The notes beneath the pieces are model-generated. The model saw only the letters and a program-made list of their open reading frames with translations, made no database searches and was not told where the DNA came from. Shown piece by piece: positions 427 through 43,365 of a stretch of 64,000 nucleotides of DNA (the stretch's first letter is position 1; every line of letters starts with the position of its first letter). The translations under genes were made by a program, and so were the position numbers. This stretch comes from an uncultured Dehalococcoidia bacterium (GTDB lineage: Bacteria > Chloroflexota > Dehalococcoidia > SZUA-161), in assembly GCA_964574685.1 (NCBI GenBank), contig CAZNOI010000003.1:53408-117407 (forward strand), given 5' to 3'.

Positions 427-501
427 TCCCCGATAGCTCAACGGTAGAGCGGGCGGCTGTTAACCGCTAGGTTGTAGGTTCGAATCCTGCTCGGGGAGCC
501 A
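427..501 (+). tRNA. tRNA-Asn(GTT): tRNA-Asn (anticodon GTT), CCA encoded
   Basis: Hand-folded cloverleaf. Acceptor TCCCCGA pairs with TCGGGGA; D arm GCTC/GAGC; anticodon stem GGCGG/CCGCT; loop CTGTTAA; T arm GTAGG-TTCGAAT-CCTGC; discriminator G then CCA. Confidence 0.9.
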
Positions 502-2048
502 TTCTGTATGGAAGGTAAAACCCCCACCGTCTCACCGACCCGACCATCCGGAAACACAGGCAGCGTGTACCTCACCGTGACCTCGTCCCTGTCTACGTCG
601 ATTGCCTTGACGAACGACCGCAGGAAGGCCTTGCGCTCCATGATCTCCGAATTCTCCAGCAGGCTTCTGAGGTCCTCGACGTAGGCCTGCACCGCGCCCT
701 CGTCCGTCAGCTCGACCGCGTGGAACAGCAGCGACTCCTCGGCCTCCGATTTCGCGCGCTCCAGTTCCAGCTTGCGGTCGAACAGAGCGTTGATTCTGGA
801 CGACAACTGCGCTGGCTTGTACTCCCCCGTCTCCAGGGCGTCGTACAGCTTGCCCAGCCTCCCCTCGACCTCCCCCATTTGCAGTTGCAGCAGCTCGATT
901 CTCTCGTGCGCCTCCCTGGAAGCGCTCCGCAGCTCGTCATTGACCAGCCCCACCAGCTCGTGCAGGTTCTCATTCGTCAGGATGTGCTGCCTGATCTGGT
1001 CGACGATGAAGCCCTCAATTTTGGCCTTCGGCAGCAGCGGCGTGTCGCAGACATCGCGGCCGCGCCGTCGCGCGTTGCCGCACATGTAGTAGAAATGCCG
1101 CCCCGACTTCACCGCGTGGCCTATCATCGCAGCGCCGCAGTGCCGGCATCTTATCAGACCGCTCAGCGCGTACTCGCTGTGCACCGTACGCGGATGGCTG
1201 ACCCTGGGGGCGCGTTCGCCCAGCTTCTCCTGCGCCTTGGCGAACGTCTCAGCGTCGATGATTGCTGGCCAGGCATTCTCCACCCTCACCGGCGGGCTGT
1301 CGCCATTGCCCAGCTGCCTCTTCTTGCGCTTGTCCCACACCATGACTCCTGCGTATGCCTCATTCTGCAGGATGCCGTGTACAGAGGTTGTGCCCCACTT
1401 CCCGCCCGTCGCGCTGCCCACGCCGTCCCTGTTCAGCCCGCCCGCTATCTCCTTGAGGCCCCGCCCTTGCAGGCACTCCCTGAATATCCGCTGCACCACC
1501 GGAGCGGTCGCAGGGTCCGGCGCGAGCTTGCTTCTGGACATCTCTCCGTCCTGGACGCTCACCCTCTTGAACCCGTAGGGAGTGCGCCCCCCGTTGTGAT
1601 AGCCGCGCGACGCGCTTTCTCTCATTCCCCTGACCACGTCCTGCGACAGGTTGGCCGAATAGAACTCGTCGATGACCTCTATGATCCCTTCGAGGAGCTT
1701 CCCGGAAGGCGTGTCCTCCAGCGGCTCGCTCACCGAGATTACCTGCACGCCGTGCTTCCGCAGCAGGGACTTGTAGACGATTGAGTCCTCGCGGTTCCTC
1801 GCGAACCTGGAGAGCTTCCACACCAGGATAGTGTCGAACCGTGGTGGCTTTTGCCTCGCAGCGGCGATCATTCGCTTGAAGCCCGGCCTGTCGATGGAGC
1901 GCCCGCTCTCCGCCTCGTCGACGTACTCCCGCACCACCTCGTGCCCGTTGCGCGAGGCCCACTCCCTCAGCGCCTTGAGCTGCGCCGAGATCGACAGGTC
2001 CGTGTCCTGCCTGTCCGATGACACCCTTGCGTACAAAGCGACGTTCAT
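438..2048 (-). CDS. large serine recombinase / integrase
   Basis: N-terminal resolvase catalytic domain: MNVALYARVSSDRQ with Ser nucleophile, then ...TILVWKLSRFARN. Large C-terminal recombinase domain with Cys-rich zinc ribbon (CRHCG...YYMCG) and coiled coil. Start taken at MNV (2048), overlapping the upstream gene by ATGA. The 3' end overlaps the tRNA. Confidence 0.85.
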   Translation of the reverse strand: MNVALYARVSSDRQDTDLSISAQLKALREWASRNGHEVVREYVDEAESGRSIDRPGFKRMIAAARQKPPRFDTILVWKLSRFARNREDSIVYKSLLRKHGVQVISVSEPLEDTPSGKLLEGIIEVIDEFYSANLSQDVVRGMRESASRGYHNGGRTPYGFKRVSVQDGEMSRSKLAPDPATAPVVQRIFRECLQGRGLKEIAGGLNRDGVGSATGGKWGTTSVHGILQNEAYAGVMVWDKRKKRQLGNGDSPPVRVENAWPAIIDAETFAKAQEKLGERAPRVSHPRTVHSEYALSGLIRCRHCGAAMIGHAVKSGRHFYYMCGNARRRGRDVCDTPLLPKAKIEGFIVDQIRQHILTNENLHELVGLVNDELRSASREAHERIELLQLQMGEVEGRLGKLYDALETGEYKPAQLSSRINALFDRKLELERAKSEAEESLLFHAVELTDEGAVQAYVEDLRSLLENSEIMERKAFLRSFVKAIDVDRDEVTVRYTLPVFPDGRVGETVGVLPSIQNGSPSRIRTYNLAVNSRPLYR

Positions 2049-2893
2049 CGTGCCCCTCCGTTCCGTGGTAACGCGATCTCGCTGATGTCCCATGTCCCGT
2101 TGCCGTCCAATGCAGAATTGCCGCCGTGCACATAGCAGTAGTCTATTGAGTCGTAGTCGTTCATCTCCAACATTTCCACAGTCGCCTGCACCGCGTCGGC
2201 CTCTGCTCCCATGTAACCCGTAGTAAGCAGAATCAGGAACGTGCTTGTTGCGCCTCGCCGCTTGGCCTCTTCCAGTTGGTCGTCGGCATCTTTCACGTTC
2301 TTGTTGAACTGGTCAAACGCCTTACCGCTCAAGGCGTGTGTGTGGCCATTGTAGAACTGATTCACCGCATCTGGGTTCAGGAATGAGCCATCCTCCTTCC
2401 ACTTGCGCAGCGTCACCCAGAAGTCATGAGGCAGTCGGTCCGATAGCTTGCCCTGCAAGTCGCCAGTGAGGTCTACTTCATCACCCAAGGCCATATCTCT
2501 TGATCGCGTCGCAATGACATCACGGAGGGCATCCCGGAGCAGCATTCTGCCGTCCCTCCTCAAGTCCAGGGCGACTAGGTCGGACACGTTCATCGACCAG
2601 ATGAATGTGCCTGACAACTCTCCGGACACAGCCTCCGCCACTTCGCGGCATATCGCTTCCAGTAGCGACGTCTGTTCGTGCAGCGCCGCATCAGTTAATC
2701 TCTTGACCTCAATGGCTACCTCGTCTCCCGTACCGGTGTCCTTGGCTACCCAGTCCGGGTTCTTCTGGCCCTGCTCCGGTTGGCCGTGCACGTCTGTGTA
2801 GCGCCCTACGAGTTCGATCGCCGTGCCATGTGTCTCGTTGTGTAGCTGCAAGACCCGCTCTACATACGACCGCTGCCATTCCTCATCTGCCAT
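2045..2893 (-). CDS. hypothetical protein, translationally coupled upstream of the recombinase
   Basis: 283-aa ORF from MADEEWQRSYVERV... No recognisable motif. Its stop overlaps the recombinase start (ATGA). Confidence 0.5.
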   Translation of the reverse strand: MADEEWQRSYVERVLQLHNETHGTAIELVGRYTDVHGQPEQGQKNPDWVAKDTGTGDEVAIEVKRLTDAALHEQTSLLEAICREVAEAVSGELSGTFIWSMNVSDLVALDLRRDGRMLLRDALRDVIATRSRDMALGDEVDLTGDLQGKLSDRLPHDFWVTLRKWKEDGSFLNPDAVNQFYNGHTHALSGKAFDQFNKNVKDADDQLEEAKRRGATSTFLILLTTGYMGAEADAVQATVEMLEMNDYDSIDYCYVHGGNSALDGNGTWDISEIALPRNGGAR

Positions 2894-3064
2894 CGTTGCC
2901 CCTCTCAACCGTAGCCTCCGGCGCATTTTAGCACATTTGTTCCATAAATGCAAGTATTTAGTACATGATTTTCACCAACGAGCTTCAAGACTGCTCCGCC
3001 CCGTGACATTCTCCGGTTGACCGTGTCCGACATCTGTTGATACCCTGCGCCACAGGAGCAAGAA

Positions 3065-3310
3065 ATGGTCAAGGCACGCACACCCGTACATCTCAAGGTC
3101 AACAGCGTCGCCGTCTGGAACTACCTCACTAGGCGCAACCTCGCCCAGAACGAGCTTGCCAAGCAGCTCGGCATCAGCACTGGCTACATGGCCCAGCTCA
3201 TCAGCGGCAAGAGAAGCCCGTCGCCCGCGCTTCGCCGCCGCATGCTCGAAACACTCGCCCCTCTCTCCTTCGACGACCTCTTCCAGGTATCAGAGAGGGA
3301 CGCCCTGTGA
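3065..3310 (+). CDS. XRE/Cro-like HTH transcriptional regulator
   Basis: NLAQNELAKQLGISTGYMAQLISGKRSPS is a typical XRE HTH. Divergent from the recombinase operon, a classic int/regulator layout. Confidence 0.7.
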   Translation: MVKARTPVHLKVNSVAVWNYLTRRNLAQNELAKQLGISTGYMAQLISGKRSPSPALRRRMLETLAPLSFDDLFQVSERDAL

Positions 3311-3458
3311 CGACCCTGCGCCAGGAGACGACGCCCGCCCCCGCCCTCGCACACGACGAGCCGTACGAGGGACTTCGCATCCTCGCCCGCATGATCGCCC
3401 GCGCCCACCTCGCCCGCACCGAGATCCCCGCCGACACCGACGCCAGCGGAGACCGCTG

Positions 3459-4106
3459 ATGCCCCGCCGCTGGTCCAGCCCCCAGACCCGAGCCTGGGCG
3501 TACCGCTATCTTGTCCTTCGGGACGGCGAGAAATGCGCCCTCTGCGGCAAAGTCCCGAAGAACACTTATTCCCTCGACATTGACCACATTGATCGTGACC
3601 CGACTAACACCTATCCCCACAATCTGCGCCTTCTGTGCCGCTCGTGCAACGTAGCTGAGGAGAACCGCAAACGCCCAAGTGACGCTGTGTGTGTGGGTGT
3701 GAAAGGCAGGGAGAGGCCGGGGACGAGGATAGCCAGGGACGTGGTGCCGTACTACGAAGGAAGCCCGGAGATGCAGGCGAACGCCCTTTTCGAGGTGCGC
3801 TATCGCCACTGGCTGCAGGGCTTCATAGACGCCCGAGGCTTCATACCGAAGAAGGAGGCCGTGAACGCTGGGGCTGAGGCCGTGGGGTGCAGCCCCGCGA
3901 CCGCGGCAAGGTACCTGGCCAAGCTCACGTCCTATCTAGGCCCACTGAAGGAGACCAAGGACATGCTGGGAGAGCCGGTGGTGACATCGAGGGCGGACGA
4001 CGGAGATTGCCCCCCAGGCTGTCCGTCGCAGGGGGAGGAACTGGCCCGCCGCCGTGGTGGGCGTCTAGCAGAGCCATCAAGCGACGGTGGTGAGGCCGAC
4101 GACTGA
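3459..4106 (+). CDS. HNH endonuclease (phage-type)
   Basis: CALCGK...LDIDHIDRDPTNTYPHNLRLLCRSCN (CxxC...DH...N...CxxC). The listed ORF 3156-4106 has a low-complexity Arg/Pro N-terminus. The in-frame ATG at 3459 is the plausible start. Confidence 0.7.
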   Translation: MPRRWSSPQTRAWAYRYLVLRDGEKCALCGKVPKNTYSLDIDHIDRDPTNTYPHNLRLLCRSCNVAEENRKRPSDAVCVGVKGRERPGTRIARDVVPYYEGSPEMQANALFEVRYRHWLQGFIDARGFIPKKEAVNAGAEAVGCSPATAARYLAKLTSYLGPLKETKDMLGEPVVTSRADDGDCPPGCPSQGEELARRRGGRLAEPSSDGGEADD

Positions 4107-4273
4107 GCCGCCCCGAGGTGCAGGACGCCTCCTGCCGGTTCTTGTGAAGGAGGAACAAGCCATGAAGCTGCTCAAGACCGCAATCGAGACCCAGCGCTGG
4201 GACCTCGCGGCGCACACCCTTGTGCTGGGGGCCGCCCTGGTTCTGGACGCACGAAAGAACGGAGCGGGAAGGA

Positions 4274-4630
4274 ATGCCAAGACAGAAGCGAAAACGAGGC
4301 GCGCAGCCCGGAAACCGCAACGCGCTTAAGCACGGCTTCTACTCGGAGGCCCTGAAGGAAGCCGAGAAGCTTGAGCTGGAGGCCGCCCGTGACCTCGACG
4401 GCCTGGACGACGAGATCGCGCTCCTGCGGGTGAAGATCAAGTCCCTGGTGGCGCACGACTCCGACGACATCAAGCTGCTGATCGATGCCACCAGCACCCT
4501 CGCGCGCCTCCTGCGGACCCGCTACAACCTCCAGCAGCACCAGCACGACGGCATCCGCGACGCCATCACCAGCGTCCTCACCGACCTCGCCATCCCCCTC
4601 GGGGTCACCATAGCAAAGGGTACAATGTGA
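4274..4630 (+). CDS. putative phage terminase small subunit-like / DNA-binding protein
   Basis: N-terminus MPRQKRKRGAQPGNRNALKHGFYSE (basic stretch plus GNxNAxKHGxYS, as I recall it from phage TerS-like proteins), then a coiled-coil region. HNH next to TerS is a common phage packaging arrangement. Confidence 0.35.
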   Translation: MPRQKRKRGAQPGNRNALKHGFYSEALKEAEKLELEAARDLDGLDDEIALLRVKIKSLVAHDSDDIKLLIDATSTLARLLRTRYNLQQHQHDGIRDAITSVLTDLAIPLGVTIAKGTM

Positions 4631-4758
4631 CCTCGCCTGCTCCACGGCCCGAGTGGGTACTTCAGTGTACTTGCGTGCACCTCGGATAAGCTGCGTACTA
4701 TTGACAAAAACCCGCCTGGCCTATAACGTTTTCTCAAACAGCTGTGGGGTGGCTACGT

Positions 4759-5811
4759 ATGTTCACACTTCTCGACCTCTTCTGCGGAGCTGGCGGCATG
4801 ACGGCTGGCTTCGTCGATGCCGGATTCGTACCCATCTTCGCGGTGGACAGCTGCAGATGGTCCGTGGACACCTACAATGCCAATTTCGGACACCATGCCA
4901 CGTGCACGCCGGTCGAGGATGTTGAGCATTTCCCCAAAGCCGACGTCGTGATCGGTGGCCCCCCTTGCCAGGGATTCAGCAACCTTGGCAAGCGTCTTCC
5001 CTTTGACCCGAGGAATCAGCTGTGGCGCCACTTCGTACGCGCGATTGCGGCCGCGCAGCCCTTGTACTTCGTAATGGAGAACGTGCCAGAGCTGCTCAAG
5101 TCCGCCGAATATGAAGCGTTGAAAGCTGAGACCGAGGGCCTCGGGTATGAAGTTGACGGTCAGGTTCTGATCGCCGCCGACTACGGCATTCCTCAGACGC
5201 GCAAGCGTAGCTTCGTTATAGGCTCGCGCGTCGGGCCACCACTGTTCCCGGTGCCCACCCACCGGCGCCCTGACGAAGTCGACTTGTTCAATCTCCACCT
5301 GCCCCCCTGGCGGACGGTCAGGGACGCGATCGCGGACCTCCCACTTGTACCGACCGACTTCGACTGGCACATCGGCCGCAATCCTACTACGATGTCATTG
5401 GAGCGCTATCGTCACGTCCCCGAGGGAGGGAACCGATTCGATCTTCCCACGCACCTCCAGCCGCCGTGCTGGATACGGAAGACAAAGGGGGGAACCGACC
5501 TGTTCGGCCGGCTGTGGTGGGACAGACCTGCGTATACCATTCGGACTGAGTTCTTCAAGCCCGAGAAAGGACGCTACCTCCACCCCCAGGCCGACCGCCC
5601 GATAACCCATCGGGAGGCGGCGCGTTTCCAGACCTTCTCGGATGATTTCACGTTCTGCGGTTCGAAGATTGAGGTCGCCAAGCAGATAGGCAACGCGGTT
5701 CCGTCCCTGCTCGCTCGCAGGATCGCCGAGGCTGTTAGAGAAGCCGTTGGGGATGCTCAACTCACGAGTGCGTCGACTCAGCCCACTCGCGCAGTATGTC
5801 CAACGCAGTGA
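4759..5811 (+). CDS. DNA (cytosine-5)-methyltransferase
   Basis: Motif I LDLFCGAGGMTAGF, motif IV GGPPCQGFS, motif VI MENVPEL, motif VIII QTRKRSF, motif X GNAVPSLLA. Confidence 0.9.
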   Translation: MFTLLDLFCGAGGMTAGFVDAGFVPIFAVDSCRWSVDTYNANFGHHATCTPVEDVEHFPKADVVIGGPPCQGFSNLGKRLPFDPRNQLWRHFVRAIAAAQPLYFVMENVPELLKSAEYEALKAETEGLGYEVDGQVLIAADYGIPQTRKRSFVIGSRVGPPLFPVPTHRRPDEVDLFNLHLPPWRTVRDAIADLPLVPTDFDWHIGRNPTTMSLERYRHVPEGGNRFDLPTHLQPPCWIRKTKGGTDLFGRLWWDRPAYTIRTEFFKPEKGRYLHPQADRPITHREAARFQTFSDDFTFCGSKIEVAKQIGNAVPSLLARRIAEAVREAVGDAQLTSASTQPTRAVCPTQ

Positions 5812-6406
5812 GCTCCGGTGGCTGCCCGGTCTCTTTCGACCTTGCCTCCAATGCCTTCATGACCTTCTTCGGCAGGTGAACGACTAGCTGTAGTGGCAGC
5901 TTCTCAGGGAAGGCCAAGGGGCATTCGCTGCAGCTCTCTCTCCGGCATGTAGCACACTCGCGCCTCTTTCGGATGTTGCAGGATGTGCACGTTGTCTGCA
6001 GGTTGCTGTCATCATCAGCGCCGTAGCGAATGAGCGGCACCTTGTGGTCTATGGTGGGACTGGGCTTGCCGGGGTCGTCGCCTACCTGTACAAGACAGAG
6101 CTGACACACATACCGGTCACGTGCATATATCCGCCTTCGCTGCTTGGCGCTGGGATATCTGCGGACCAGACGAGGCCTCACCGGCTCGGCTGACGTCCTA
6201 CGATAGTGCCACTGGCCGTTTATGTTCGACCTATCGATGTCGAAGCCGTACTCATCGCGAAGCTGCGCGATACGACGACGGTAGTCGCTCTGCCCGCTTA
6301 TCTTCAGCATTTCCTCTCGAGACACCCACTCGCCTACCGGTAGTGCGTCCAGGAACGGCTGAAGATGCTGTGGTACCGGGTCGACCCCTTTGCGGTTGCC
6401 TCCCAA
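5762..6406 (-). CDS. HNH-family restriction endonuclease (R subunit of Type II R-M), convergent with the methyltransferase
   Basis: VCQLCLVQ...IDHKVPLIRYG...NLQTTCTSCN HNH core plus extra CxxC pairs. The 3' end overlaps the methyltransferase gene by 50 bp. The controller gene lies immediately upstream. Confidence 0.6.
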   Translation of the reverse strand: MGGNRKGVDPVPQHLQPFLDALPVGEWVSREEMLKISGQSDYRRRIAQLRDEYGFDIDRSNINGQWHYRRTSAEPVRPRLVRRYPSAKQRRRIYARDRYVCQLCLVQVGDDPGKPSPTIDHKVPLIRYGADDDSNLQTTCTSCNIRKRRECATCRRESCSECPLAFPEKLPLQLVVHLPKKVMKALEARSKETGQPPELTALDILREWAESTHS

Positions 6407-6408
6407 GT

Positions 6409-6648
6409 CTACTCTTCTCCCTCGACTGCCGACTGAAAGAACGACATCGACTTCCCGTATGCGCGGGCGAACTCCACCAACTCCACGAAGTCAACGCGTC
6501 GCTCGCCAGACTCGCACTTAGATATGTACGACTGAGACCTGCCAAGGCGCTTCGCGGCCTCTGCCTGAGTCAAACCGGCTTCCAGTCGCGCTCGCCGCAG
6601 GCTGGCGACAAGACTCTCGTATGATTGCCTGTCTTCACCCCGCTTCAT
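6409..6648 (-). CDS. controller (C) protein-like XRE HTH regulator of the R-M system
   Basis: 80 aa from MKRGEDRQS.... LEAGLTQAEAAKRLGRSQSYISKCESGERR is an XRE HTH. Its stop codon is 3 bp from the endonuclease start (C-R operon). Confidence 0.6.
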   Translation of the reverse strand: MKRGEDRQSYESLVASLRRARLEAGLTQAEAAKRLGRSQSYISKCESGERRVDFVELVEFARAYGKSMSFFQSAVEGEE

Positions 6649-6819
6649 GACCGTGTCTGCTCTGACCAAGAACGGCATTATCCCATTCTGGAATAGATAT
6701 CCCAAATTGGAATATCGCGCCCTCCGCATTGAGTCTCAGACACGCAGCGGGTCGTACCATGTGGTGTGAAATGCCGACAAGTGGCAGAATAGGGTGGACC
6801 ATGTCACCATGGGGGCCGC

Positions 6820-7521
6820 ATGACTGCTCAAGACAAGGGTGCACACGACCTGGACCAGCTTGCGGTTGACCAATTCCGGCAGGTTCTAGTCCTGTGGTTC
6901 CGCGCTCACGGTCGGGACCTTCCCTGGCGGCGCACACGTGATCCCTACGCGATTCTACTGTCGGAAGTGCTGTTACAGCGGACGCAGGCCTCTCAAGTCG
7001 CGGCCCACTTTGATTCGATCATCTCCGCAATTCCGACTATCACTTCACTCGCTGGTGCCTCGGAGCAAGACATCCGTGTAATCTTAGCGCCGCTGGGCCT
7101 TGCCAAACGCGCAGGTACGCTCCGCGCCATGGCGGTTGACATCATTGAGCACTACGATGGCTCTGTCCCGTCGAATGTCAACTCTCTTATGGCACTGCCC
7201 GGAGTCGGCCGCTACATCGCTTCGGCGACTGCCTGCTTCGCGTTCGGTGCCAAGACGCCGGTACTAGATGCGAACGTCATCCGTATCCTCAGCAGGTACT
7301 TCGCCGTGGCTTCCGCCATCAAACGCCCGCGATATGACAACCGGCTCTGGAGTGCAGCGGCAGACATCTTGCCGGAATCCGACTACGTCGATTTCAACAG
7401 AGCGCTGATTGACTTCGCTTCTCTTGTCTGCACCGGCCGACGGCCTGGCTGCCTTGACTGCCCACTACGTTCTACCTGCCGGAACGCCGTCGACGCCCTT
7501 ACCCGATTGTCTGAGACTTGA
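6820..7521 (+). CDS. EndoIII/MutY-family HhH-GPD DNA glycosylase with [4Fe-4S] loop; context suggests a Mig-type T:G mismatch glycosylase
   Basis: LPWRRTRDPYAILLSEVLLQRT; HhH LPGVGRYIASA; catalytic VLDANVIRILSR; C-x6-C-x2-C-x5-C (CTGRRPGCLDCPLRSTC). 233 aa, EndoIII-sized. Lies adjacent to the C5-methyltransferase. Confidence 0.75.
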   Translation: MTAQDKGAHDLDQLAVDQFRQVLVLWFRAHGRDLPWRRTRDPYAILLSEVLLQRTQASQVAAHFDSIISAIPTITSLAGASEQDIRVILAPLGLAKRAGTLRAMAVDIIEHYDGSVPSNVNSLMALPGVGRYIASATACFAFGAKTPVLDANVIRILSRYFAVASAIKRPRYDNRLWSAAADILPESDYVDFNRALIDFASLVCTGRRPGCLDCPLRSTCRNAVDALTRLSET

Positions 7522-7591
7522 CAAGACGGGCCTCCTGGCGTATTTACTTACATGTTCGGCACCGGTTCATCGCCGACACAAGGAGACAACC

Positions 7592-9556
7592 ATGACCGAA
7601 GAGGACAGGGCGCTCTACCTGAGGTTCCATGGTCGGATACTAGAGCATTTTGGCATCCAGACTTACCAAAGCCCGGTTGCCGCCATCGCGGAGCTTGTGG
7701 CGAATTGCTGGGACGCGGATGCAAGTGAAGTGCGAATAGTGCTTCCGGCGAACTTGGGGGACAATGCCACCATCGAGATACTGGACGACGGTATCGGCAT
7801 GACATTCGATGAGTGTCAAGAACGCTACCTAAGCGTTGGTCTGAACCGGAGGGCCAATGACCCGGATGAACGTTCGCCGGAGAAGAGGAGACCGATCTTG
7901 GGCCGCAAGGGAATAGGCAAGTTCGCTGGCTTCGGCATTGCAGAAACCATGCGCATCTCAACGACCAGCAAGCAGACGGGCGAGGCGACCGTGTTCGAGC
8001 TTCGTCTACCTGACCTAATCAGCGATGAATACGTAAGCACCAACGATAAGCCTGTCGACATCGTTGAGCATAGGTCTCCCGATGACCAACGCAAGTTGGA
8101 GCACGGCACTGTTGTGACACTATCGGGGCTCAAGCTCGGAAAGACTCCGTCGCCCGACGCGTTCGCCAAGAGTATGGCTCGTCGTTTTCTGCTCCTCCAG
8201 CAGCAGGCCGACTTCCGGGTGCTTGTCAATGATCAGGAGTTGCCCAAATCCTTCGACTTGCAGGACGTGCAATACGTGTTTCCCCGCGACTACAAATCTG
8301 AGGAGATGCCCGCCGATCTTGAGACACAAGACATTGAACTCTATGGCGTGGAGAAGCTATCCAACGACCGTAAGATCCGATGGCAGTTCTGCTTCCACAA
8401 TGATACGATTGACGACGAGGAGCTGCAGGGTATTGCTATCTTCGCCAAGGGGAAGCTCATCCAGGCCCCATTCCTTTTCAATCTCAGCGGTGGTCTCGGC
8501 GGTCAACACGGGGTAGCCTATCTGTCTGGTCAAGTCCAGGCGGACTACCTTGACTCGCTCTCCGTGGACCTTGCCGCTACGGAGCGTCAGAGGGTCAACT
8601 GGGAGCATAGAGAGAGCGCCCCACTGCTGGAGTGGGGGCAGACCAGGATCAAGGAGCTCCTCAGGACTTGGCAAGACCGCCGAGGTGAGCAGAGAACTCG
8701 CATGCTTGATCAACGCGTGTCCGGTTTCTCATCGAGGTTGGGCAGACTACATTCACCTGAGCAGCGAACGGTCTCCAAAGCTTTGAGGAAGCTTGCCCAA
8801 GTTTCCACACTGAATGATGCACAATTTGAAGACCTCGGAAACGCGGTACTCACCGCGTGGGAAGAGGGACGCCTCAGAGGACTCATTGACCAGATTGCCC
8901 AAGCTCAGACCATGTCCGAGGAAGACCTCCTCAGCGTCCTCCTGGAGGCACAGGCGCTCACGGCTCTCAACGTGGCAGAAGCAGTCCGAACCAAGCTCCA
9001 GACTGTGGCTGGCCTGATACAGCGTATAGAACGCCGTGAGCTCGAAACAGCTGTACGCGACTACATAGCGAAGAACCCTTGGCTTATAGCTCCCCAATGG
9101 GAAACCTTCCGCAAGGAGACTACTGTTAAGCACCTCCTAGATCAGGCCGCCGGGCAGGTCGGTTTCACCGACAACGAGTTCAACGGTCGTGTCGACCTCG
9201 CACTCGCGAGCGGCAATCACCTGCTTGTTCTCGAATTCATGCGACCAAGCCTTACCCTCAATTGGGACCATCTACAACGCTTCGAGAGATACGTCCTGAA
9301 TATACGGGGCAACATAGACGCCAACACCGCTGGCGTTTTCAGGCGCGTCACTGGTTACGTAATAGCAGACAACCTTGAGGCTCGGTCGGATAATCGCGCC
9401 AAGATTACTTCTATGGTCAAAGAAGACATGTACGCCCTCGATTGGCGCTCCCTCTTCAGCCAGGCCCTTGCCAAGTGGCAGGAGTTCCTTGACATACTCG
9501 TCTCACGGGCTCCGGAGGACGAGCGTCTGCAGGCTCTACTCCAGCCTCCCGACTAA
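7592..9556 (+). CDS. MORC-like GHKL (HATPase_c_3-type) ATPase with long C-terminal region
   Basis: ELVANCWDADASEVRI (N box), IEILDDGIGMT (G1), GRKGIGKFAGFGIA (G2-like). C-terminal part contains NPWLIAPQW...GRVDLAL...LLVLEFMRPS, which resembles a restriction-endonuclease-like core. RBS AGGAG before ATG 7592. Confidence 0.75.
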   Translation: MTEEDRALYLRFHGRILEHFGIQTYQSPVAAIAELVANCWDADASEVRIVLPANLGDNATIEILDDGIGMTFDECQERYLSVGLNRRANDPDERSPEKRRPILGRKGIGKFAGFGIAETMRISTTSKQTGEATVFELRLPDLISDEYVSTNDKPVDIVEHRSPDDQRKLEHGTVVTLSGLKLGKTPSPDAFAKSMARRFLLLQQQADFRVLVNDQELPKSFDLQDVQYVFPRDYKSEEMPADLETQDIELYGVEKLSNDRKIRWQFCFHNDTIDDEELQGIAIFAKGKLIQAPFLFNLSGGLGGQHGVAYLSGQVQADYLDSLSVDLAATERQRVNWEHRESAPLLEWGQTRIKELLRTWQDRRGEQRTRMLDQRVSGFSSRLGRLHSPEQRTVSKALRKLAQVSTLNDAQFEDLGNAVLTAWEEGRLRGLIDQIAQAQTMSEEDLLSVLLEAQALTALNVAEAVRTKLQTVAGLIQRIERRELETAVRDYIAKNPWLIAPQWETFRKETTVKHLLDQAAGQVGFTDNEFNGRVDLALASGNHLLVLEFMRPSLTLNWDHLQRFERYVLNIRGNIDANTAGVFRRVTGYVIADNLEARSDNRAKITSMVKEDMYALDWRSLFSQALAKWQEFLDILVSRAPEDERLQALLQPPD

Positions 9557-9589
9557 ACAGACTGAACCTTCCTTCAGGAGGCCTTTCCC

Positions 9590-10426
9590 ATGGCCTACGT
9601 AATCCTCACTCAGAGAGTCCCTCCCGACGACTACCGGGACGAGATCGGCACACTGTACAACTACCCTCGGCGATACTGGAGGCGACTCTACACAGGCGAT
9701 CGCATGATCTATCACCAGCCGCGCGATCGTTCAAACGGAGGAATGGTCTATTTCGGATGCGGTGTAGTCGGAGACATCCAACCCGACCCTCACGACCCAA
9801 ACCGGCGTAACGCAGAGATCGTCGACTACACAGCCTTTGAAAGGCACGTTCCCGTCACGCGTCGGGGCCGGTTTCTTGAGCCTGCCATCAATAGGCAGGT
9901 CGACATGGTAGGCAACGCAGTTCGCACTATTGATGAACCGACCGCTCTCGCCATCCTGAGTGCTTCTCATACGCAGCCCCCATGGGCTTGGCTGCCCACC
10001 GGTGGGACCGGGGCACCACCATCGTCGCCTACTAACGAGGCGGACCTGCGGCGTGCTATTGACACCTTCGACCAGCACTATGCAAGCCTGGCCCCCGAGC
10101 GCCGTGCGCGCACGCTATCGACGCTTCATCGCCCATCATCCATAGGGGCATACCTGAAGCAGCTCTACGGCACCAGATGTCGCATCTGCGGCGTGGACGG
10201 TTTCCTGCAGAGAATCGGGACCTCCTATGCCGAGATTCACCACGTCGATGAGCTCAGCACTGAACACCCCGGAGTTCTCGGCACGCAGAACATCTTGATC
10301 CTCTGTCCTACCTGTCACAGAAAGCTCCATTTCGCGAACGTCACTGTCATTCCCACTTCCTTGGGCTGGGACATGACCATCAATGGTCGGCATGTCGCCG
10401 TCCAAAGGATGCATAGCCCCGCCTGA
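9590..10426 (+). CDS. HNH endonuclease with about 190-aa N-terminal domain of unknown type (possibly modified-base/DNA binding)
   Basis: C-terminal CRICGVDG...AEIHHVDELS...NILILCPTCH HNH motif. N-terminal region YVILTQRV...YNYPRRYWRRL...MVYFGCGVV has no motif I can name. Starts 34 bp after the GHKL gene, same strand. Confidence 0.7.
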   Translation: MAYVILTQRVPPDDYRDEIGTLYNYPRRYWRRLYTGDRMIYHQPRDRSNGGMVYFGCGVVGDIQPDPHDPNRRNAEIVDYTAFERHVPVTRRGRFLEPAINRQVDMVGNAVRTIDEPTALAILSASHTQPPWAWLPTGGTGAPPSSPTNEADLRRAIDTFDQHYASLAPERRARTLSTLHRPSSIGAYLKQLYGTRCRICGVDGFLQRIGTSYAEIHHVDELSTEHPGVLGTQNILILCPTCHRKLHFANVTVIPTSLGWDMTINGRHVAVQRMHSPA

Positions 10427-10860: not shown

Positions 10861-11100
10861 ATGGCTGATTTGGATAAGGAGATCAAGAGAATAGAAGCGG
10901 GCGACGCCTGGGACGAGAGCGATGAAGTCGTCCGGGTAGAAGTGAAGAAGCCTCTGGACAAGGTGATCCCCGTGCGGCTCTCGGCGGACAAGTGGGAGGA
11001 GCTGAGGAAGGAAGCCACTGAGCTTGGCATCGGTCCGACGACCCTTGCCCGGATGTGGATACTGGAGCGTTTGCGACTTGGGACGAAGGCCGGAGTCTAG
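10861..11100 (+). CDS. RHH/CopG-like (BrnA-type) antitoxin-like protein, orphan
   Basis: IPVRLSADKWEELRKEATELGIGPTTLARMWILERL is a ribbon-helix-helix antitoxin-like sequence. No toxin ORF adjacent. Confidence 0.5.
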   Translation: MADLDKEIKRIEAGDAWDESDEVVRVEVKKPLDKVIPVRLSADKWEELRKEATELGIGPTTLARMWILERLRLGTKAGV

Positions 11101-11149
11101 CGGTGATAACCTGTCACTTTGATTGTGATATGGCGTTTCATCACCTCTG

Positions 11150-11353
11150 CAATGGGGACTTTCAGTCTATCCAACACTTCGGTCAGTTCCCTCTCCCTCT
11201 AAGGGAGAGGGTCAGGGTGAGGGTGCGTAAATGCATGCGGCTTAAGAATGGTGCTGCGGCGGTTGTTCGCCTCACTCCGGCTTTCTCCCCTTTGGGGAGA
11301 GAGGGGATGGTTTCGCTTTGGTCAGTGCTGCCCTCTCCCTCTAAGGGAGAGGG
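11150..11353. repeat. cluster of three GC hairpin repeats (REP/MITE-like family), locus A
   Basis: CCCTCTCCCTctaAGGGAGAGGG at 11189-11211 followed by tcAGGGTGAGGGTGCG. TCTCCCCtttGGGGAGA at 11284-11300. A second CCCTCTCCCTctaAGGGAGAGGG at 11331-11353. Lies between convergent gene ends. Confidence 0.6.
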
Positions 11354-12478
11354 TCAGGCGGCCGTGTGCGCGGCGGTCCGGCAGCGGGCAGCCTCTGCTG
11401 TGTACTCTGCAATCAGGGATTGCATGAGTTCGCTGACCGATATGATGGTGTCCACGCGATAGGCGTTGGCCCCGGCGAAGGCGAAGCCGTTCCTCATGTT
11501 ACCCCTCTTCGCGTTGGCCAGCGCCAGCGCGATACAGTAGCTGGACTTCTCGAAATCACAGGTCTTGAGGCACTTCCAGGGGCACTTGAACGGCTTCCTT
11601 GCACCTGCAGCCACTTCATCGAGGAACCGGCTCCTGATGGCCCTGCCGGGCAGGCCGACCGGGGAGTCGATGATGGTCAGGTCCCCCTCTTTGCAGTTCA
11701 CATATGCATCTTTGAACTGCGTTGCCGCATCACATTCGTATGTCCCCACGAACCTGGTCGCCATCTGAACGCCCTTCGCGCCAAGCTCCATGAACTGGAA
11801 CATGTCCGCGCCTGTGTAGACTCCGCCCGCTGCGATAACTGGGATGCTCTTCCCGAAGCGTTGCTCGTAGGGCTCAATGGCGGAAATTGCGTCCATCAGT
11901 ATGTTCTTCAGTGAGTAGGCGGGATCGTCGATCTGTTCTCTCTTGAACCCGAGATGCCCTCCGGCCAGAGGGCCTTCCACCACGACAGCATCCGGCACGT
12001 GATTGTAGCTCCGCGCCCATTGCTGGAAGACGATCCTGGCTGCTCTTGCGGAGGATATGATCGGGACTACCCTGGTCGCCCCCTGTGTAAGGCGGTCGAT
12101 GGCAAGTGCGTCGGGTTTCTTGGCGAGTCCCGCCCCGAGGAAGACCAGGTCGGCGCCCTCATCGAAGGCGGTCTCGACCAGTCCATCATAGTCGTTGAGA
12201 GCTACCATTACGTTCACACCGATTATGCCCTTGGTAACGTCCCTCGCTTTGCGTATCTCGGCGCGAAGCGCACGTTTGTTGGCCTCTCTGGAGTTGGTCA
12301 TGAAGTCGGACTCGTGAAGCCCGATTCCGGCGGTGGCAATGACTCCGATCCCACCTTCATTCGCGACGGCGGAGGCCAATCGGGAGAGGGAAATGCCTAC
12401 CCCCATTCCTCCCTGGACTATTGGAATACTTGCTTCCAGGTCACCAATTCGAAGCCCTGGAAGTCCGTTAAGTCTCAT
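11354..12478 (-). CDS. nitronate monooxygenase / FabK-like enoyl-ACP reductase family (NPD) protein
   Basis: IVQGGMGVGIS...GGIGVIATAGIG... and overall NMO-family (FMN TIM-barrel) fold, with a Cys-rich C-terminal extension. Confidence 0.75.
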   Translation of the reverse strand: MRLNGLPGLRIGDLEASIPIVQGGMGVGISLSRLASAVANEGGIGVIATAGIGLHESDFMTNSREANKRALRAEIRKARDVTKGIIGVNVMVALNDYDGLVETAFDEGADLVFLGAGLAKKPDALAIDRLTQGATRVVPIISSARAARIVFQQWARSYNHVPDAVVVEGPLAGGHLGFKREQIDDPAYSLKNILMDAISAIEPYEQRFGKSIPVIAAGGVYTGADMFQFMELGAKGVQMATRFVGTYECDAATQFKDAYVNCKEGDLTIIDSPVGLPGRAIRSRFLDEVAAGARKPFKCPWKCLKTCDFEKSSYCIALALANAKRGNMRNGFAFAGANAYRVDTIISVSELMQSLIAEYTAEAARCRTAAHTAA

Positions 12479-16777: not shown

Positions 16778-16991
16778 CCTGTTTCAGGTAGGCCGGCGGG
16801 TCAGCCGTGTTGACGCCTACCGCTGAGATTGCTTGAAGCACAGATGGGTCCTGAAGTAGCCACGGAGAAACTGCTGCTTGGCCACGACAGAGAGTCCTCG
16901 TGCCACGCAGGTATTGCGTGGGTTGCGCCGGCCGAGCGAGTTGGATTTTGGATCATAACGTAGGGGCGTTGCGAGATCAACGGCTTTTCCT

Positions 16992-17207
16992 TCCCTCACT
17001 CCAACTCTCTCCCTGGGGAGAGAGGGCACTGGCGTATCTACCTTCTTCCCGAGGGGAGAGGGCGAGGGCGTGGACGTCCGTGACGTCGTCGTCGGAGCGG
17101 AGTTGTGGATTTAGTCTCCTCACTCTGGGTCTCTCCCCAAGGGGGAGAGAGGGCATGGGTGTGTCTCCCCTCTCCCTGCGAGGGAGAGGGCTAGGGTGAG
17201 GGTGCGC
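16992..17207. repeat. cluster of GC hairpin repeats of the same family as 11150-11353, locus B
   Basis: CTCTCTCCCtgGGGAGAGAG (17005-17024), TCTCTCCCCaaGGGGGAGAGA (17131-17151), CCCTCTCCCTgcgAGGGAGAGGGctAGGGTGAGGGTGCG (17168-17206). The last is near-identical to the 11189-11227 element. Confidence 0.6.
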
Positions 17208-17296
17208 TGGGTTGACGGCCTCAGGGCAACGCCGCTAGTATCCAGATTGGAGACTTGGAACGCCTCAAGCGGGGGTTCGGATTGGCTGAGAGCAGT

Positions 17297-22460: not shown

Positions 22461-22510
22461 GACGTATCAATCGAATACCGCCCGTTTGCATGAGGGCAAG
22501 GGAGTCTGTG

Positions 22511-32848: not shown

Positions 32849-33871
32849 ATGGGTAAGTTCCGACTACTGGCGGTGCTGGGGATAGTAGTGGCGCTTGTGG
32901 CGGCTGTTGTGCCCGGGCACGCACTGGCGGATGGGGCTGTCAGCGTCGTTGCCCCCGGGGAGGTTCCGGAAGGGGGTACTTTCACGGCTTATATCACTGT
33001 CGACTGGGTGGAGGACCTCGATTCCGGTCAGTTCGAGCTTGGATACGACCCGAACGTCATTGAAGTGACGCATATTGTCTCGGGTATCAGACACGGCACG
33101 CTGCTGCCTTCGGGGAACACAACAGTCACGGCGAGTCAGCCCGACACGGGCATACTGCGGGTGGTGGTGAACACAGCAAGTCATCCGGCTACAGGAGGTG
33201 TAACCGGGACCGGCTGCCTTGTCGAGATCGACTTCGATGTGCTGGGCGAGTACTGCGATACCAGCGTGCTGGATCTCGCCCCTCCTACGGGTTTCCAGAA
33301 CGGGATGTGGGATTACCTGGCCTTCGAGATTCCCACGACTTGGTCAGACAGCGCCGTGCACGTCTGCCAGCCGCGGACCCTGGTATCGGGGGTAATCGAT
33401 AGCGGTTTTGCTCCCACCGACGACTTCAACCCGGGCGAAACTGTGGCTGTCTATGGCTACGGGTTCCTGCCGGGTGAGCCGTATGAGCTGTATGTTCAGC
33501 CGTACACAATGGGCGTGAACGTTGCCGAGGGAGATGCACTGGTCGCCGGTGCCGATCCCAGTGCAGTGTCTCCGCAGCCGATCGTGTCGAACATGTACGG
33601 TGAAATAGGCCCGGTGCCTGTGTGGATCATACCGGCAACCGGTCAGGAGGGAACCTACTGGGAGATAGTAGCCGACGATGCGGGGGCCTCATGTGTCGGA
33701 GACGGACTGTACAATGCCGCTGAGGATGGACTCGACGCCATGGCCCTCGACGAGGAGGGCTTCTATGTGGTGCCCGAGGCCACGACGCTTATCCTGCTGT
33801 CACTTGGCCTGGTCAGCGTGGGAGGGTACTACTTCATACGCAGGCGCAGAGTCTCGTCAATCGAGGCTTAG
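32849..33871 (+). CDS. cohesin-domain protein with PEP-CTERM-type C-terminal sorting signal
   Basis: Signal peptide. Cohesin-like GGTFTAYITVDW...SGQFELGYDPNVIEVTHIVSG...GILRVVV...CLVEIDFDV. C-terminus VVPEATTLILLSLGLVSVGGYYFIRRRRV (PEP-like motif, TM helix, Arg cluster). Confidence 0.55.
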   Translation: MGKFRLLAVLGIVVALVAAVVPGHALADGAVSVVAPGEVPEGGTFTAYITVDWVEDLDSGQFELGYDPNVIEVTHIVSGIRHGTLLPSGNTTVTASQPDTGILRVVVNTASHPATGGVTGTGCLVEIDFDVLGEYCDTSVLDLAPPTGFQNGMWDYLAFEIPTTWSDSAVHVCQPRTLVSGVIDSGFAPTDDFNPGETVAVYGYGFLPGEPYELYVQPYTMGVNVAEGDALVAGADPSAVSPQPIVSNMYGEIGPVPVWIIPATGQEGTYWEIVADDAGASCVGDGLYNAAEDGLDAMALDEEGFYVVPEATTLILLSLGLVSVGGYYFIRRRRVSSIEA

Positions 33872-33898
33872 AGACCAGATATCAGCTTGACGATCCAG

Positions 33899-33935
33899 GG
33901 AGACGGCGAGAGGCCTCGCCGTCTCTTTCTCTTTT
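33899..33935 (+). terminator. rho-independent terminator
   Basis: GAGACGGCGAGaggCCTCGCCGTCTC followed by TTTCTCTTTT, 28 bp after the cohesin gene stop. Confidence 0.7.
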
Positions 33936-33995
33936 CCCGGCCGTTCTTTGACCTCGAATTGGGTGGCCGGTATCATGGTAGCTGACCGGTGAGTC

Positions 33996-34811: not shown

Positions 34812-34820
34812 CGACTGCAG

Positions 34821-38086: not shown

Positions 38087-38298
38087 CCGATAATGCGGAT
38101 TACCTCGATGCTGACGACGACGGCGAATGCAACAAGAAGAGGCAGGGAAAAGGTAACAGCGTAGCGCCTGAAGGCGAGCATAGCCGGCTTGCTGCTGGCA
38201 CCGGCGACCTCGCTGGCGGCCATCCATGCTATCAAGAAGATGACCATGGCTATCGTCACCGAGCCGGCAAGAGCGGTCGTGAGCAAGATGGCAGTCAT
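38083..38298 (-). CDS. possible small two-TM membrane protein (71 aa)
   Basis: MTAILLTTALAGSVTIAMVIFLIAWMAAS...LPLLVAFAVVVSIEVI with GGGAGG 11 nt upstream. It is only the tail of the listed 189-aa ORF. Confidence 0.25.
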   Translation of the reverse strand: MTAILLTTALAGSVTIAMVIFLIAWMAASEVAGASSKPAMLAFRRYAVTFSLPLLVAFAVVVSIEVIRIIG

Positions 38299-38387
38299 CT
38301 GAGGGACGACCTCCCGTTGCAGGTTAGCCGACACCGAACTGCAAGTCAAGGTCAGGGGCGCTCCGCCGCCGGAGAAGGAGGACTGGA

Positions 38388-40190: not shown

Positions 40191-40408
40191 TGAGCACGCC
40201 GTCATAGCAGGCGATGTCTGTGGGCACGCTCGTGTTGAGCCTGAAGGCAGCTTTGCCGTGCAGGACCACAAGCGGCGGGTTCTCCCACGAAGCGTAGTCC
40301 CCACCAGCCTTGTGCAGCAGCAGGGCGCGGCCCGTGTAGTCCTCCGCCGCACCATACAGTCTCATTCTGGCATCCCCGGTGCCGATCCTCCTCAGGGTGC
40401 CGGAGACA

Positions 40409-43309: not shown

Positions 43310-43365
43310 ACGTCATGACAACCGAGGCTTACCGGTCAATCGTCTTGCGCTTCTCTCGCTGCCTG

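Follow-up and report, generated by a model that had tools for sequence, protein, structure and literature searches.

The window (the whole stretch of DNA analysed, 64 kb from the genome of an uncultured Chloroflexota bacterium) contains two intergenic clusters of short palindromes, loci A and B (Table 1). Locus A lies between two convergent genes, a 79-aa open reading frame and the gene for nitronate monooxygenase (NMO), and holds three palindromes, as the first-pass annotation had described. A 23-nt palindrome, CCCTCTCCCT-CTA-AGGGAGAGGG, is present as two identical copies at 11189-11211 and 11331-11353, and a third palindrome, TCTCCCC-TTT-GGGGAGA, lies at 11284-11300. It was also correctly noted that the last palindrome ends directly at the NMO stop codon and that the first carries a tail, the 14-nt sequence AGGGTGAGGGTGCG (11214-11227), which recurs verbatim at locus B (17193-17206). 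The 23-nt palindrome pattern has three matches in the window against 0.00 expected, and a looser hairpin pattern has seven, all inside loci A and B, against 0.11 expected.

Table 1. Units and genes at loci A and B, in coordinates of the window
Feature	Position	Strand	Description
79-aa ORF	10861..11100	+	no Pfam family; convergent upstream neighbour of locus A
119-aa ORF	11103..11462	+	gene-finder call in Logan contigs, across all three locus A repeats
Unit A1	11188..11224	+	complete type I triplex motif: (T)CCCTCTCCCT-CTA-AGGGAGAGGG-TC-AGGGTGAGGGT
Unit A2	11270..11303	-	type II variant: CTCTCTCC-CCAAAGG-GGAGAAAG-CCG-GAGTGAGG
Unit A3	11331..11353	+	type I, hairpin only
NMO gene	11354..12478	-	nitronate monooxygenase, Pfam PF03060 (E 2.9e-54); downstream neighbour of locus A
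NMO stop codon	11354..11356	-	TGA (TCA on + strand); one base past A3 palindrome end, 11353
Unit B1	16993..17024	-	type II: CTCTCTCCC-CA-GGGAGAGAG-TTG-GAGTGAGGG; nine perfect triads
Unit B2	17041..17073	+	decayed type I: CCTTCTTCCC-GA-GGGGAGAGGG-CGA-GGGCGTGG; read off sequence
Unit B3	17118..17150	-	type II: TCTCTCCCC-CTT-GGGGAGAGA-CCC-AGAGTGAGG
Unit B4	17167..17203	+	complete type I: CCCCTCTCCCT-GCG-AGGGAGAGGG-CT-AGGGTGAGGGT

The palindromes had been taken as the repeat unit. They are real, but the unit is longer (about 35 nt) and consists of a pyrimidine block, a loop, a purine block, a second loop and a third block that is the mirror image of the purine block. A2 lies on the opposite strand (the TCTCCCC-TTT-GGGGAGA palindrome is its + strand reading, with CCTCACTCC upstream), and locus B holds four units, not one, so that seven units were seen at two loci in 64 kb of the source genome. 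The tail is indeed shared, running to 11227 (GCG) in A1 and to 17206 in B4, but what had been described as a non-palindromic appendage is the third strand of an intrastrand-triplex motif (PMC4666352). The pyrimidine and purine blocks would pair as a hairpin, and the third block, composed of G, T and A and mirroring the purine block, could in the single-stranded state fold back antiparallel onto the hairpin, giving a purine-motif intramolecular triplex.

The window was scanned with the class II purine-motif triad rule, in which the third block runs antiparallel to the purine block and forms G.G-C, A.A-T and T.A-T triads, with a stem of at least 8 and at most one mismatch. This gave five complete units (A1, A2, B1, B3 and B4) against 0.03 per shuffled window, and all five fall within the two loci. 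A1 has 11 triads with one mismatch, A2 has 8 with one mismatch, B3 has 9 with one mismatch, and B4 also passes. A3 and B2 fail the rule and are incomplete, decayed fragments; the fold of B2 is weak. ViennaRNA folding, which covers the hairpin part alone, gave DNA hairpins of -11.2 kcal/mol for A1 (z -3.4), -13.4 kcal/mol for A3 (z -5.9) and -11.0 kcal/mol for B4, the hairpins of the other units being weaker (-8.7 kcal/mol for B3). A3 is identical to A1 over 28 nt, through TCAGG (repeat family D5), and A2 and B3 share 82% identity across 44 nt (repeat family D12). Orientation alternates from one unit to the next, + - + at locus A and - + - + at locus B, and all units on the + strand are type I while all those on the - strand are type II.

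Work on a bacterial repeat named BoxC or PIT (potential intrastrand triplex) element was reportedly carried out by Bachellier in the 1990s and by Hoyne and Maher in 2000. Its triplex-motif form in E. coli, TM-ECO, has the pattern CCCTCNCCC-N3-6-GGGNGAGGG-N3-GGGNGAGGG, and 23 E. coli copies have been given (Holder et al. 2015, PMC4666352). The exact pattern occurs in A1 (11189-11223) and B4 (17168-17202), with 0.00 matches expected in the window; these are two of the seven units and the other five fail it. The type II units are recognised through the triad scan, which is looser than the published pattern, and A2 and B3 each need one mismatch. Taken as a whole, loci A and B are best explained as clusters of this known interspersed intergenic repeat, BoxC / PIT / TM-ECO, with a probability of about 0.82. 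The palindromes of locus A are thus copies of a known bacterial repeat and ordinary in themselves.

The likeness to TM-ECO extends to the same three blocks (CCCTCTCCC, GGGAGAGGG and GGGTGAGGG), the same loop sizes and an intergenic position. Both loci in the window are intergenic, the one overlap being that of the 3′ end of NMO with the decayed third block of A3. In E. coli a unit stands alone or forms an inverted pair with one of the other subtype, always A with B, and the alternation of types I and II in the window resembles these pairs, although here the arrays run to three or four alternating units. The host also differs, an uncultured Chloroflexota in place of a proteobacterium, as does loop 2, which is TCA or CTA here and TTA or CCG in E. 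coli. GGGAGAGAG with GAGTGAGGG, the second subtype, has no counterpart among the listed E. coli types and lacks a canonical G-quadruplex (G4) pattern. The window therefore adds to a repeat known since the 1990s both a new host and a predicted triplex-capable subtype without the canonical G4 pattern.

A nearly identical E. coli oligonucleotide forms a triplex in vitro by CD and NMR, but the E. coli triplex was undetected in vivo by DMS footprinting and the double-stranded motif is B-form in vitro (PMC4666352). The fold may therefore be transient or irrelevant in the cell.

The contact between the repeat and the NMO gene was examined by comparison with a relative, L169, whose NMO is 78% identical (the best named homologue, from Dehalococcoidia, is 75% identical) and which has the same unit pair 3′ of NMO. 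There the orthologue of A3 is complete and lies 60 nt past the stop codon. In the window the third block of A3 (11357-11369) is decayed and has become part of the NMO coding sequence, and the stop codon is the TCA loop that separated the purine block of A3 from it. Relative to L169 the window protein (350 aa as called in Logan assemblies) extends about 8 residues further at its C-terminus, and the spacer lacks about 45 nt. The coincidence of stop codon and repeat most likely arose when a deletion let the NMO frame enter the decayed third block and end at the loop TGA. A duplicated 3′ end of NMO, as seen in L169, was not found in the window. The 119-aa ORF called across locus A has no Pfam match, overlaps NMO by 109 nt and has no equivalent called in the syntenic L169; it is very probably spurious.

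Synteny between the window and L169 stops exactly at locus B. Two Logan contigs (short-read assemblies) break or overlap inside B4, at 17175-17195. A break there fits a repeat, but the palindrome alone could also cause it, and the loss of synteny could be an assembly join.

Beyond the window, the exact hairpin turned up in at least 120 stretches of genomes and 43 of viral contigs. Among the matches listed, the phyla include Chloroflexota, Planctomycetota, Armatimonadota, Nitrospirota, Acidobacteriota, CPR, Omnitrophota and Proteobacteria (with Enterobacteriaceae); 156 of 183 hairpins (85%) have the third block; and 301 triplex motifs occur in 1.19 Mb against none in shuffles. The 9-nt purine core takes 42 different forms, with three-way covariation of the stem; at random places the control gave 8/756. 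Asymmetric cores obey the mirror rule over the direct-repeat rule (10 vs 1 for AGGGGGAGG and 10 vs 0 for GAGAGGGGG). That 42 stem variants covary in three ways is comparative evidence of an unusually direct kind for conservation of a DNA triplex geometry, over sequence or G4. The near-identity of the 9-nt blocks across phyla could reflect convergence under the constraints of a stable triplex instead of common descent. By crude ORF calls, 59% of motifs are intergenic, although only 12% of the DNA is non-coding, and the gaps that hold them are more often convergent than divergent (32:16, against a baseline of 103:101); in tandem gaps the motif has no orientation bias relative to transcription (41:53). 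The units in the window would most likely be copies, neither coding nor autonomous, of a selfish or neutral repeat that persists and spreads as structured DNA, singly or as pairs of about 100 nt, with local side effects here in the form of a strong hairpin abutting the NMO stop codon, the breakpoint at locus B and a spurious gene call.

The first-pass annotation had compared them with REP or MITE elements, and the comparison holds for a dispersed, structure-forming intergenic family with the organisation of REP/BIME elements, in which short GC-rich intergenic palindromes form arrays of alternating orientation and prefer gene 3′ ends. It does not hold for mobilisation by a RAYT (an IS200-like Y1 transposase), since the conserved 5′ GTAG/GTGG tetranucleotide is absent (the flanks of the units differ and none adjoins the stem) and no Y1_Tnp match was found among the window proteins scanned. 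REPs are lineage-specific and differ between species, whereas the same blocks occur here across many phyla together with a mirror-image third block that REPs lack. The three characterised families recurring beside 163 motif loci, among the matches listed, also include no transposase, and we give a REP/RAYT system hardly any weight. The MITE likeness lies in the inverted, end-like pair of units with a short spacer (about 100-115 nt), which is polymorphic for presence as a unit; target-site duplication was not detected and we know of no transposase. Action at the level of RNA, as 3′ stabilising hairpins or terminators of the flanking genes or as a small structured RNA of the Whalefall-1 type, has in its favour a 10-bp GC hairpin immediately past the NMO stop codon (the A3 hairpin is symmetric and so forms in the NMO transcript too) and the enrichment in convergent gaps. 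However, the U-run is absent, 11150-11360 and 16990-17210 contain no terminator-like site, PIT elements have neither promoter nor terminator activity in E. coli (cited in PMC4666352), and the lack of orientation bias in tandem gaps points the same way. The Whalefall-1 consensus (RF01762), UCUCUCC-UUGG-GGAGAGA then AGgGuGAGGAC, does resemble a unit, with a hairpin and a third-block-like segment, but its Rfam matches score 20-21.5 bits, far under the 37-bit gathering score, and scores of 16.5-21.5 bits come with a different spacing, including a 24-nt insert. As purine-motif triplexes do not form in RNA (PMC4666352), an RNA-level reading leaves the third block unexplained, and we consider it very improbable. 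Membership of Whalefall-1 was rejected at a best score of 21.5 bits; at gathering thresholds the sole Rfam match in the window is a tRNA, and at permissive thresholds there are sub-threshold Whalefall-1 and chance miRNA matches only. Neither a CRISPR array (orientations alternate, spacings of 14-45 nt are irregular and the window has no cas genes) nor an intrinsic terminator (no T-run follows any unit) fits, in agreement with the earlier annotation on both points.

The HPG1/HPG2 motifs (Kaplan 2016) are these E. coli sequences read on their G-rich side, and for GGGAGAGGGTTAGGGTGAGGG and GGGAGAGGGCCGGGGTGAGGG an ion-dependent switch between hairpin and G4 has been reported from CD (PMC5100583). 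The units could on this basis be G4/hairpin/duplex switches acting on neighbouring genes, and A1 and B4 do contain four G-tracts, as GGG-N3-GGG-N3-GGG-N3-GGG. The canonical pattern (four runs of at least three G, loops of 1-7 nt) is however absent from A2, A3, B1, B2 and B3. Motifs found next to DUF559 genes (see below), and so not selected by sequence, are G4-capable in 74 of 166 cases, leaving more than half without the pattern, whereas all 166 obey the triad rule. The observed covariation keeps a mirror symmetry that a G4 would not require, NMR on the E. coli oligonucleotide favoured the triplex over G4 (PMC4666352), and there is no promoter bias, divergent gaps being under-represented. A switch of this kind is very improbable. 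The proposal that such motifs are host-selected hotspots of recombination or instability yielding adaptive variation (Holder et al. 2015) draws on the link of E. coli TM loci to genomic instability, these loci being more rearranged between strains (PMC4666352). The end of L169 synteny at locus B, the three alleles (filled, single-hairpin and empty) at E. coli hrpB-mrcB, and the duplication of gene 3′ ends around TM segments in L169 and at ycjD would fit it too. A selfish repeat predicts equal instability, we know of no benefit and an assembly join could account for the break at locus B; host selection is given next to no probability.

The search for an associated gene that the first-pass annotation had proposed did turn up a co-occurring gene family, but this is DUF559 and not RAYT. 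In many phyla, triplex motifs bracket the genes of one clade of DUF559 endonucleases (Vsr-like, EDxHD-type). At 56 of 80 loci picked by DUF559 homology alone, with a three-sequence alignment (a six-sequence alignment was too divergent), a motif is found no more than 200 nt from a gene end, which amounts to a 15-fold enrichment locally. The association is reciprocal and holds in sequences chosen independently of the motif, and matched motif pairs flank the genes. Among the matches listed, the three characterised families recurring beside the 163 motif loci are ABC ATPases, DUF559 and response regulators, the characterisation covering neighbour clusters other than those from phage contigs. The E. 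coli member, ycjD, has the same bracketing, and E. coli strains without ycjD have far fewer motif copies. The local association, the matched pairs, the ycjD arrangement and the fewer motifs in ycjD-negative E. coli together indicate a partnership. The physical association of motif and gene is well supported; an enzymatic link between them is what we infer from it.

The bracketed genes match PF04480 (E down to 1e-37) and PDB 3HRL (E 2e-21), and their proteins keep the invariant D, E-x-D-G-x-x-H and D residues of the family. DUF559 has been described as the EDxHD family of homing endonucleases (PMC9403480). Known homing members of this Vsr-like group, the I-Bth0305I family, sit in introns or inteins; the motif-bracketed genes instead stand free, as cassettes encoding about 130 aa with a triplex motif on either side, and are predicted endonucleases. 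The TM motifs probably have an autonomous partner system in such cassettes of about 0.45-0.65 kb, in which two motifs bracket a DUF559 gene. The proposed order would be TM(+), a spacer of typically about 8-25 nt, the gene for the endonuclease of about 130 aa, and TM(-). Tentatively, and at somewhat less than even odds, a minimal selfish DUF559 cassette could have BoxC/PIT/TM as its terminal repeats or as its homing target; the pairs of about 100 nt and the solo units, among them the window copies and the classical BoxC of E. coli, would be either non-autonomous derivatives of the cassette or targets that are empty. Neither tblastn with four DUF559 proteins nor Pfam scans found a DUF559 gene in the window, whose units would be solo or non-autonomous copies. 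In 20 (+,-) cassettes the flanks gave no sign of target-site duplication (mean shared word 3.95 against a null of 3.63, the observed value being reached by 36 of 500 shuffles), and the empty site in E. coli shows no clear duplication either.

To our knowledge, the function, origin and partner protein of BoxC/PIT/TM elements have all been unknown for about 30 years, and we know of no substrate for DUF559 (E. coli YcjD). The DUF559 link may give this orphan repeat family a partner enzyme and would merge the two questions into one, that of YcjD cutting or binding the folded motif. If true, this would be a partnership like that of REP and RAYT, with inverted repeat copies on both sides of the gene for a small nuclease, but with a PD-(D/E)XK Vsr-like protein in place of the HUH Y1 transposase and with triplex-forming DNA, across many bacterial phyla. 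The literature searched, mostly outside subscription journals, contained no paper linking DUF559 or ycjD to BoxC or the intrastrand triplex, and an earlier description is possible. When the same DUF559 search was run in viral contigs a single locus was found, and the clade is therefore mostly chromosomal.

The first-pass annotation had described three palindromes at locus A, lying between convergent genes, and this description was confirmed. Copies of CCCTCTCCCT-CTA-AGGGAGAGGG are present at 11189-11211 and 11331-11353, with TCTCCCC-TTT-GGGGAGA at 11284-11300. The last palindrome does end directly before the stop codon of the nitronate monooxygenase (NMO) gene, and the tail AGGGTGAGGGTGCG, said to be common to both loci, occurs verbatim at 11214-11227 and 17193-17206. 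As the 79-aa ORF upstream of locus A is on the plus strand and NMO, downstream, on the minus strand, the genes are convergent. Locus B (16990-17206) has a histidine kinase gene on one side and a DUF362 gene on the other, and contains four units rather than a single one. The 23-nt palindrome pattern was found three times (0.00 expected) and a looser hairpin pattern seven times (0.11 expected), all seven lying within locus A or B, so chance does not explain the repeats. A 119-aa ORF (11103-11462, plus strand), called as a gene in public assemblies, spans all three locus-A repeats and shares 109 nt with NMO; this gene call is probably false and induced by the repeats, like those behind 'PSPxGEG'-type hypothetical proteins.

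The palindrome accounts for no more than two thirds of a unit; a third block completes it. In both A1 and B4, GGGTGAGGGT begins 2-3 nt beyond the purine arm AGGGAGAGGG; when it is aligned antiparallel to that arm, every position reads G.G, T.A or A.A, the triads of a purine-motif triple helix. A triad scanner (pyrimidine block, loop, purine block, loop and third block, in that order; stem ≥8, ≤1 bad triad, loops of 1-7 and 1-6 nt) returned five motifs in the 64-kb window, all at loci A and B, against 0.03 per shuffled window. Unit orientation alternates along each locus. Plus-strand units are of a single subtype, GGGAGAGGG with GGGTGAGGG, and minus-strand units of the other, GGGAGAGAG or GGGGAGAGA with GAGTGAGG. 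Modelled as single strands of DNA, the A1, A3 and B4 hairpins have predicted folding energies of -11 to -13.4 kcal/mol, and the canonical four-tract G-quadruplex pattern is found in A1 and B4 only.

Repeat units of loci A and B and the genes beside locus A
Feature	Position	Strand	Remarks
79-aa ORF	10861-11100	+	upstream neighbour of locus A
A1	11188-11224	+	triad scan
A2	11270-11303	-	triad scan
A3	11331-11353 (hairpin)	+	third block decayed
NMO gene	11354-12478	-	Pfam NMO, E 2.9e-54; stop codon 11354-11356
B1	16993-17024	-	triad scan, nine perfect triads
B2	17041-17073		degenerate along whole length
B3	17118-17150	-	triad scan
B4	17167-17203	+	triad scan

Full-text searching with the two 9-mers pointed to Holder et al. 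2015 (PMC4666352), who define the TM-ECO element as CCCTCNCCC-N3-6-GGGNGAGGG-N3-GGGNGAGGG, list 23 copies in E. coli K-12 and equate it with BoxC (1990s) and the PIT elements of Hoyne and Maher (2000). Both A1 and B4 are exact matches to the pattern. According to the same report, a near-identical E. coli sequence forms a stable triplex in vitro (CD and NMR), and DMS footprinting of the E. coli element in vivo gave no triplex signal. The E. coli elements have neither promoter nor terminator activity, are intergenic in every case, form inverted pairs that always comprise one of each subtype and lie at loci of increased genomic variability (PMC4666352). Kaplan et al. 2016 (PMC5100583) read the same sequences as a G-quadruplex/hairpin switch. 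The exact match and the published E. coli data together show that the window units are new members of the BoxC/PIT/TM-ECO family: the repeats are real, are accounted for by a known kind of element and are ordinary as such. The REP-like reading of locus A was not borne out; a REP/RAYT identity was rejected, the units fitting the TM-ECO family instead and the window proteins scanned including no RAYT, the Y1 transposase partner of REP repeats. Sub-threshold matches to Rfam Whalefall-1 (RF01762) were seen at 17003-17069, 17116-17151 and 17129-17191 (16.5-21.5 bits; gathering score 37). The Whalefall-1 consensus (UCUCUCC-UUGG-GGAGAGA, 24-nt insert, AGgGuGAGGAC) resembles the hairpin and third block of a unit, and this 'RNA motif' may be a relative of the DNA repeat family.

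Stretches with the exact hairpin number 43 in IMG/VR contigs and at least 120 in GTDB species genomes. The hosts listed are Chloroflexota, Planctomycetota, Armatimonadota, Nitrospirota, Methylomirabilota, Acidobacteriota, Omnitrophota, CPR phyla and Proteobacteria (Enterobacter, Kluyvera, Citrobacter and Cedecea among them), a wider range than the 262 proteobacterial genomes of the 2015 report (Holder et al., PMC4666352). From the matches listed in both collections, 163 motif loci (1.19 Mb) were assembled. The third block, absent from the search query, is present at 156 of their 183 search-selected hairpins, and the triad scanner found 301 motifs against none in shuffles. Crude ORF calls put 59% of the motifs between genes, against 12% non-coding DNA; gaps with motifs are convergent or divergent in the ratio 32:16 (baseline 103:101), and motif orientation at these loci has no bias relative to transcription (41:53). 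All loci pooled, 42 different perfect 9-nt purine cores occur. For asymmetric cores, mirror-image third blocks outnumber direct repeats by 10 to 1 (AGGGGGAGG), 10 to 0 (GAGAGGGGG) and 6 to 1 (GGGAGAAGG), and the control at random places gave 8 of 756. This three-way covariation of cores and third blocks indicates that mirror (triplex) geometry is the conserved property; among motifs found without sequence selection, only 74 of 166 are G4-capable.

The first-pass annotation had also suggested seeking a RAYT/TnpA(IS200)-like partner gene. When all ORFs of the 163 motif loci were clustered, a recurrent family did emerge, second only to ABC ATPases, and it was DUF559 (PF04480, E to 1e-37), a Vsr-like endonuclease; the window itself has neither a DUF559 gene (tblastn) nor a RAYT gene (Pfam scans of its proteins). 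By tblastn DUF559 is present in 8 motif loci from several phyla. At L018, L123 (Sphingopyxis) and L148 (Anaerolineales) a DUF559 gene of ~130 aa is tightly bracketed by an inverted motif pair, and L086 (Nitrospirales) is arranged similarly. The reciprocal test used 80 metagenome loci picked by DUF559 homology alone (40-85% identity). A full motif lies ≤200 nt from a DUF559 gene end at 56 of the 80 and at both ends at 32; close to the gene ends there are 2.41 motifs per kb, and in the remainder of these loci 0.159. By a looser hairpin criterion either end is occupied at 61 of 71 loci and both at 41, against 16 of 201 control windows. DUF559 genes and the motif are therefore associated.

In the commonest layout the plus-oriented motif, TM(+), ends typically ~8-25 nt upstream of the DUF559 start codon, TM(-) lies typically at ~-12 to +30 nt from the stop, and both third blocks point towards the gene. 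Twenty such cassettes span 418-653 nt; no target-site duplication was detected around them. Motifs of the same cassette resemble each other (0.763) more than those of other cassettes (0.577), with 0 of 2000 permutations as high. The DUF559 proteins retain the invariant residues D, E-x-D-G-x-x-H and D and match PDB 3HRL (E 2e-21). DUF559 is classed with Vsr and the EDxHD homing endonuclease I-Bth0305I (EDxHD description: PMC9403480), and is enriched among the predicted targets of programmed inversion (odds ratio 14.3; Milman et al. 2023), which fits genes flanked by inverted repeats. No publication tying DUF559 to BoxC/TM motifs was found in the literature searched, coverage of which was incomplete. 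The repeat family may spread as structured DNA that DUF559 either mobilises or homes into; the window units are probably non-autonomous copies, with no more than incidental local effects. For a family whose biology has been unsettled for decades, DUF559 is a specific candidate partner that can be put to the test. L067, L074 and L127 are motif-bearing contigs of one Anaerolineales MAG (CBDUUP01), two of them with DUF559 genes, so the gene can be multi-copy in a motif-rich genome.

In E. coli K-12 ycjD is the one DUF559 gene noted, and it shares the association with motifs. Its stop codon is overlapped by a decayed motif, just beyond which ~40 nt of the ycjD 3' end are duplicated (1815-1858 and 1926-1966 of the ycjD locus, L171); TM-ECO no. 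9 lies 168 nt downstream. The gene is present in 3377 of 5426 complete E. coli genomes and absent from ~38% (B2/ST131/APEC, O157 and others). In an even-step sample of 60 records, 36 ycjD-positive chromosomes had a median of 24 query places, ycjD counted among them (range 11-32), and 23 ycjD-negative chromosomes a median of 3 (1-4 in B2/ST131/APEC strains, 13 in O157 strains), a correlation confounded by phylogeny. The hrpB-mrcB site is filled by the full pair in K-12, carries a single recombined hairpin in an O111 strain and is empty in an ST131 strain. Several aligned DUF559 proteins, YcjD included, end in ...PSP and a stop codon, and it is the pyrimidine/purine block of the motif downstream that encodes these residues; in ycjD, the case checked, the stop codon is within the motif loop (L171 1908-1920). 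The motif thus supplies the gene end, as A3 does for NMO.

L169, a JGI metagenome contig, is the closest relative for which context is available. Its NMO is 78% identical, and its PAS kinase, response regulator and kinase are syntenic with those of the window. The same two units follow NMO in the same orientations, the first being complete and beginning 60 nt past the stop. Relative to L169, ~45 nt are absent between NMO and A3 in the window, the A3 third block has decayed from GGGTGAGGG to GGCGGCCGT, and the NMO frame is ~8 codons longer, ending at a TGA formed by the TCA loop. From this comparison of sequences, the exact abutment of A3 on the NMO stop is a by-product of deletion plus read-through; an effect of the abutting hairpin on translation or mRNA stability is possible. 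In L169 ~75 nt of the NMO 3' end are duplicated (7050-7125 and 7372-7445, ~80% identity), the copy sitting beyond a ~320-nt segment that bears both motifs. Long gene-end duplications around motif insertions may be informative on how the motifs arrive.

Synteny with L169 stops exactly at locus B, where L169 has an Oxidored_FMN gene instead of DUF362. Two independent short-read Logan assemblies of the source metagenome (SRR7048218 and SRR7048220) break inside B4: contigs L002 and L003 end there, and the next contig, L001, begins there, with a 21-nt overlap at 17175-17195. These breaks fit either a repeat-associated rearrangement or a chimeric assembly join in the source contig.

Elsewhere in the window, a gene for a large serine recombinase (438-2093, minus strand) adjoins a tRNA gene (427-498). 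Next come HNH nucleases, a cytosine DNA methylase, an HTH protein, an HhH-GPD glycosylase and a HATPase_c_3 protein. The region 427-10426 has the look of an integrated island carrying genes of restriction or defence type, and it stops just short of locus A. A 3423-aa ORF (22490-32761, plus strand) with Peptidase_C25, CARDB and related domains contains internal ~1.5-kb tandem duplications of 71-73% identity, with repeats at 25909-26645 and 27436-28184. Two gene clusters follow: one with exosortase (EpsH), DUF3485, Rce1-like, glycosyltransferase and flippase genes (32849-50406), and one of fatty-acid or polyketide type with KAS III, KAS, two reductases, an acyltransferase, a PPTase and two amine-oxidase-like flavoproteins (51411-60542). 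A second DUF362 gene lies at 61401-62717.
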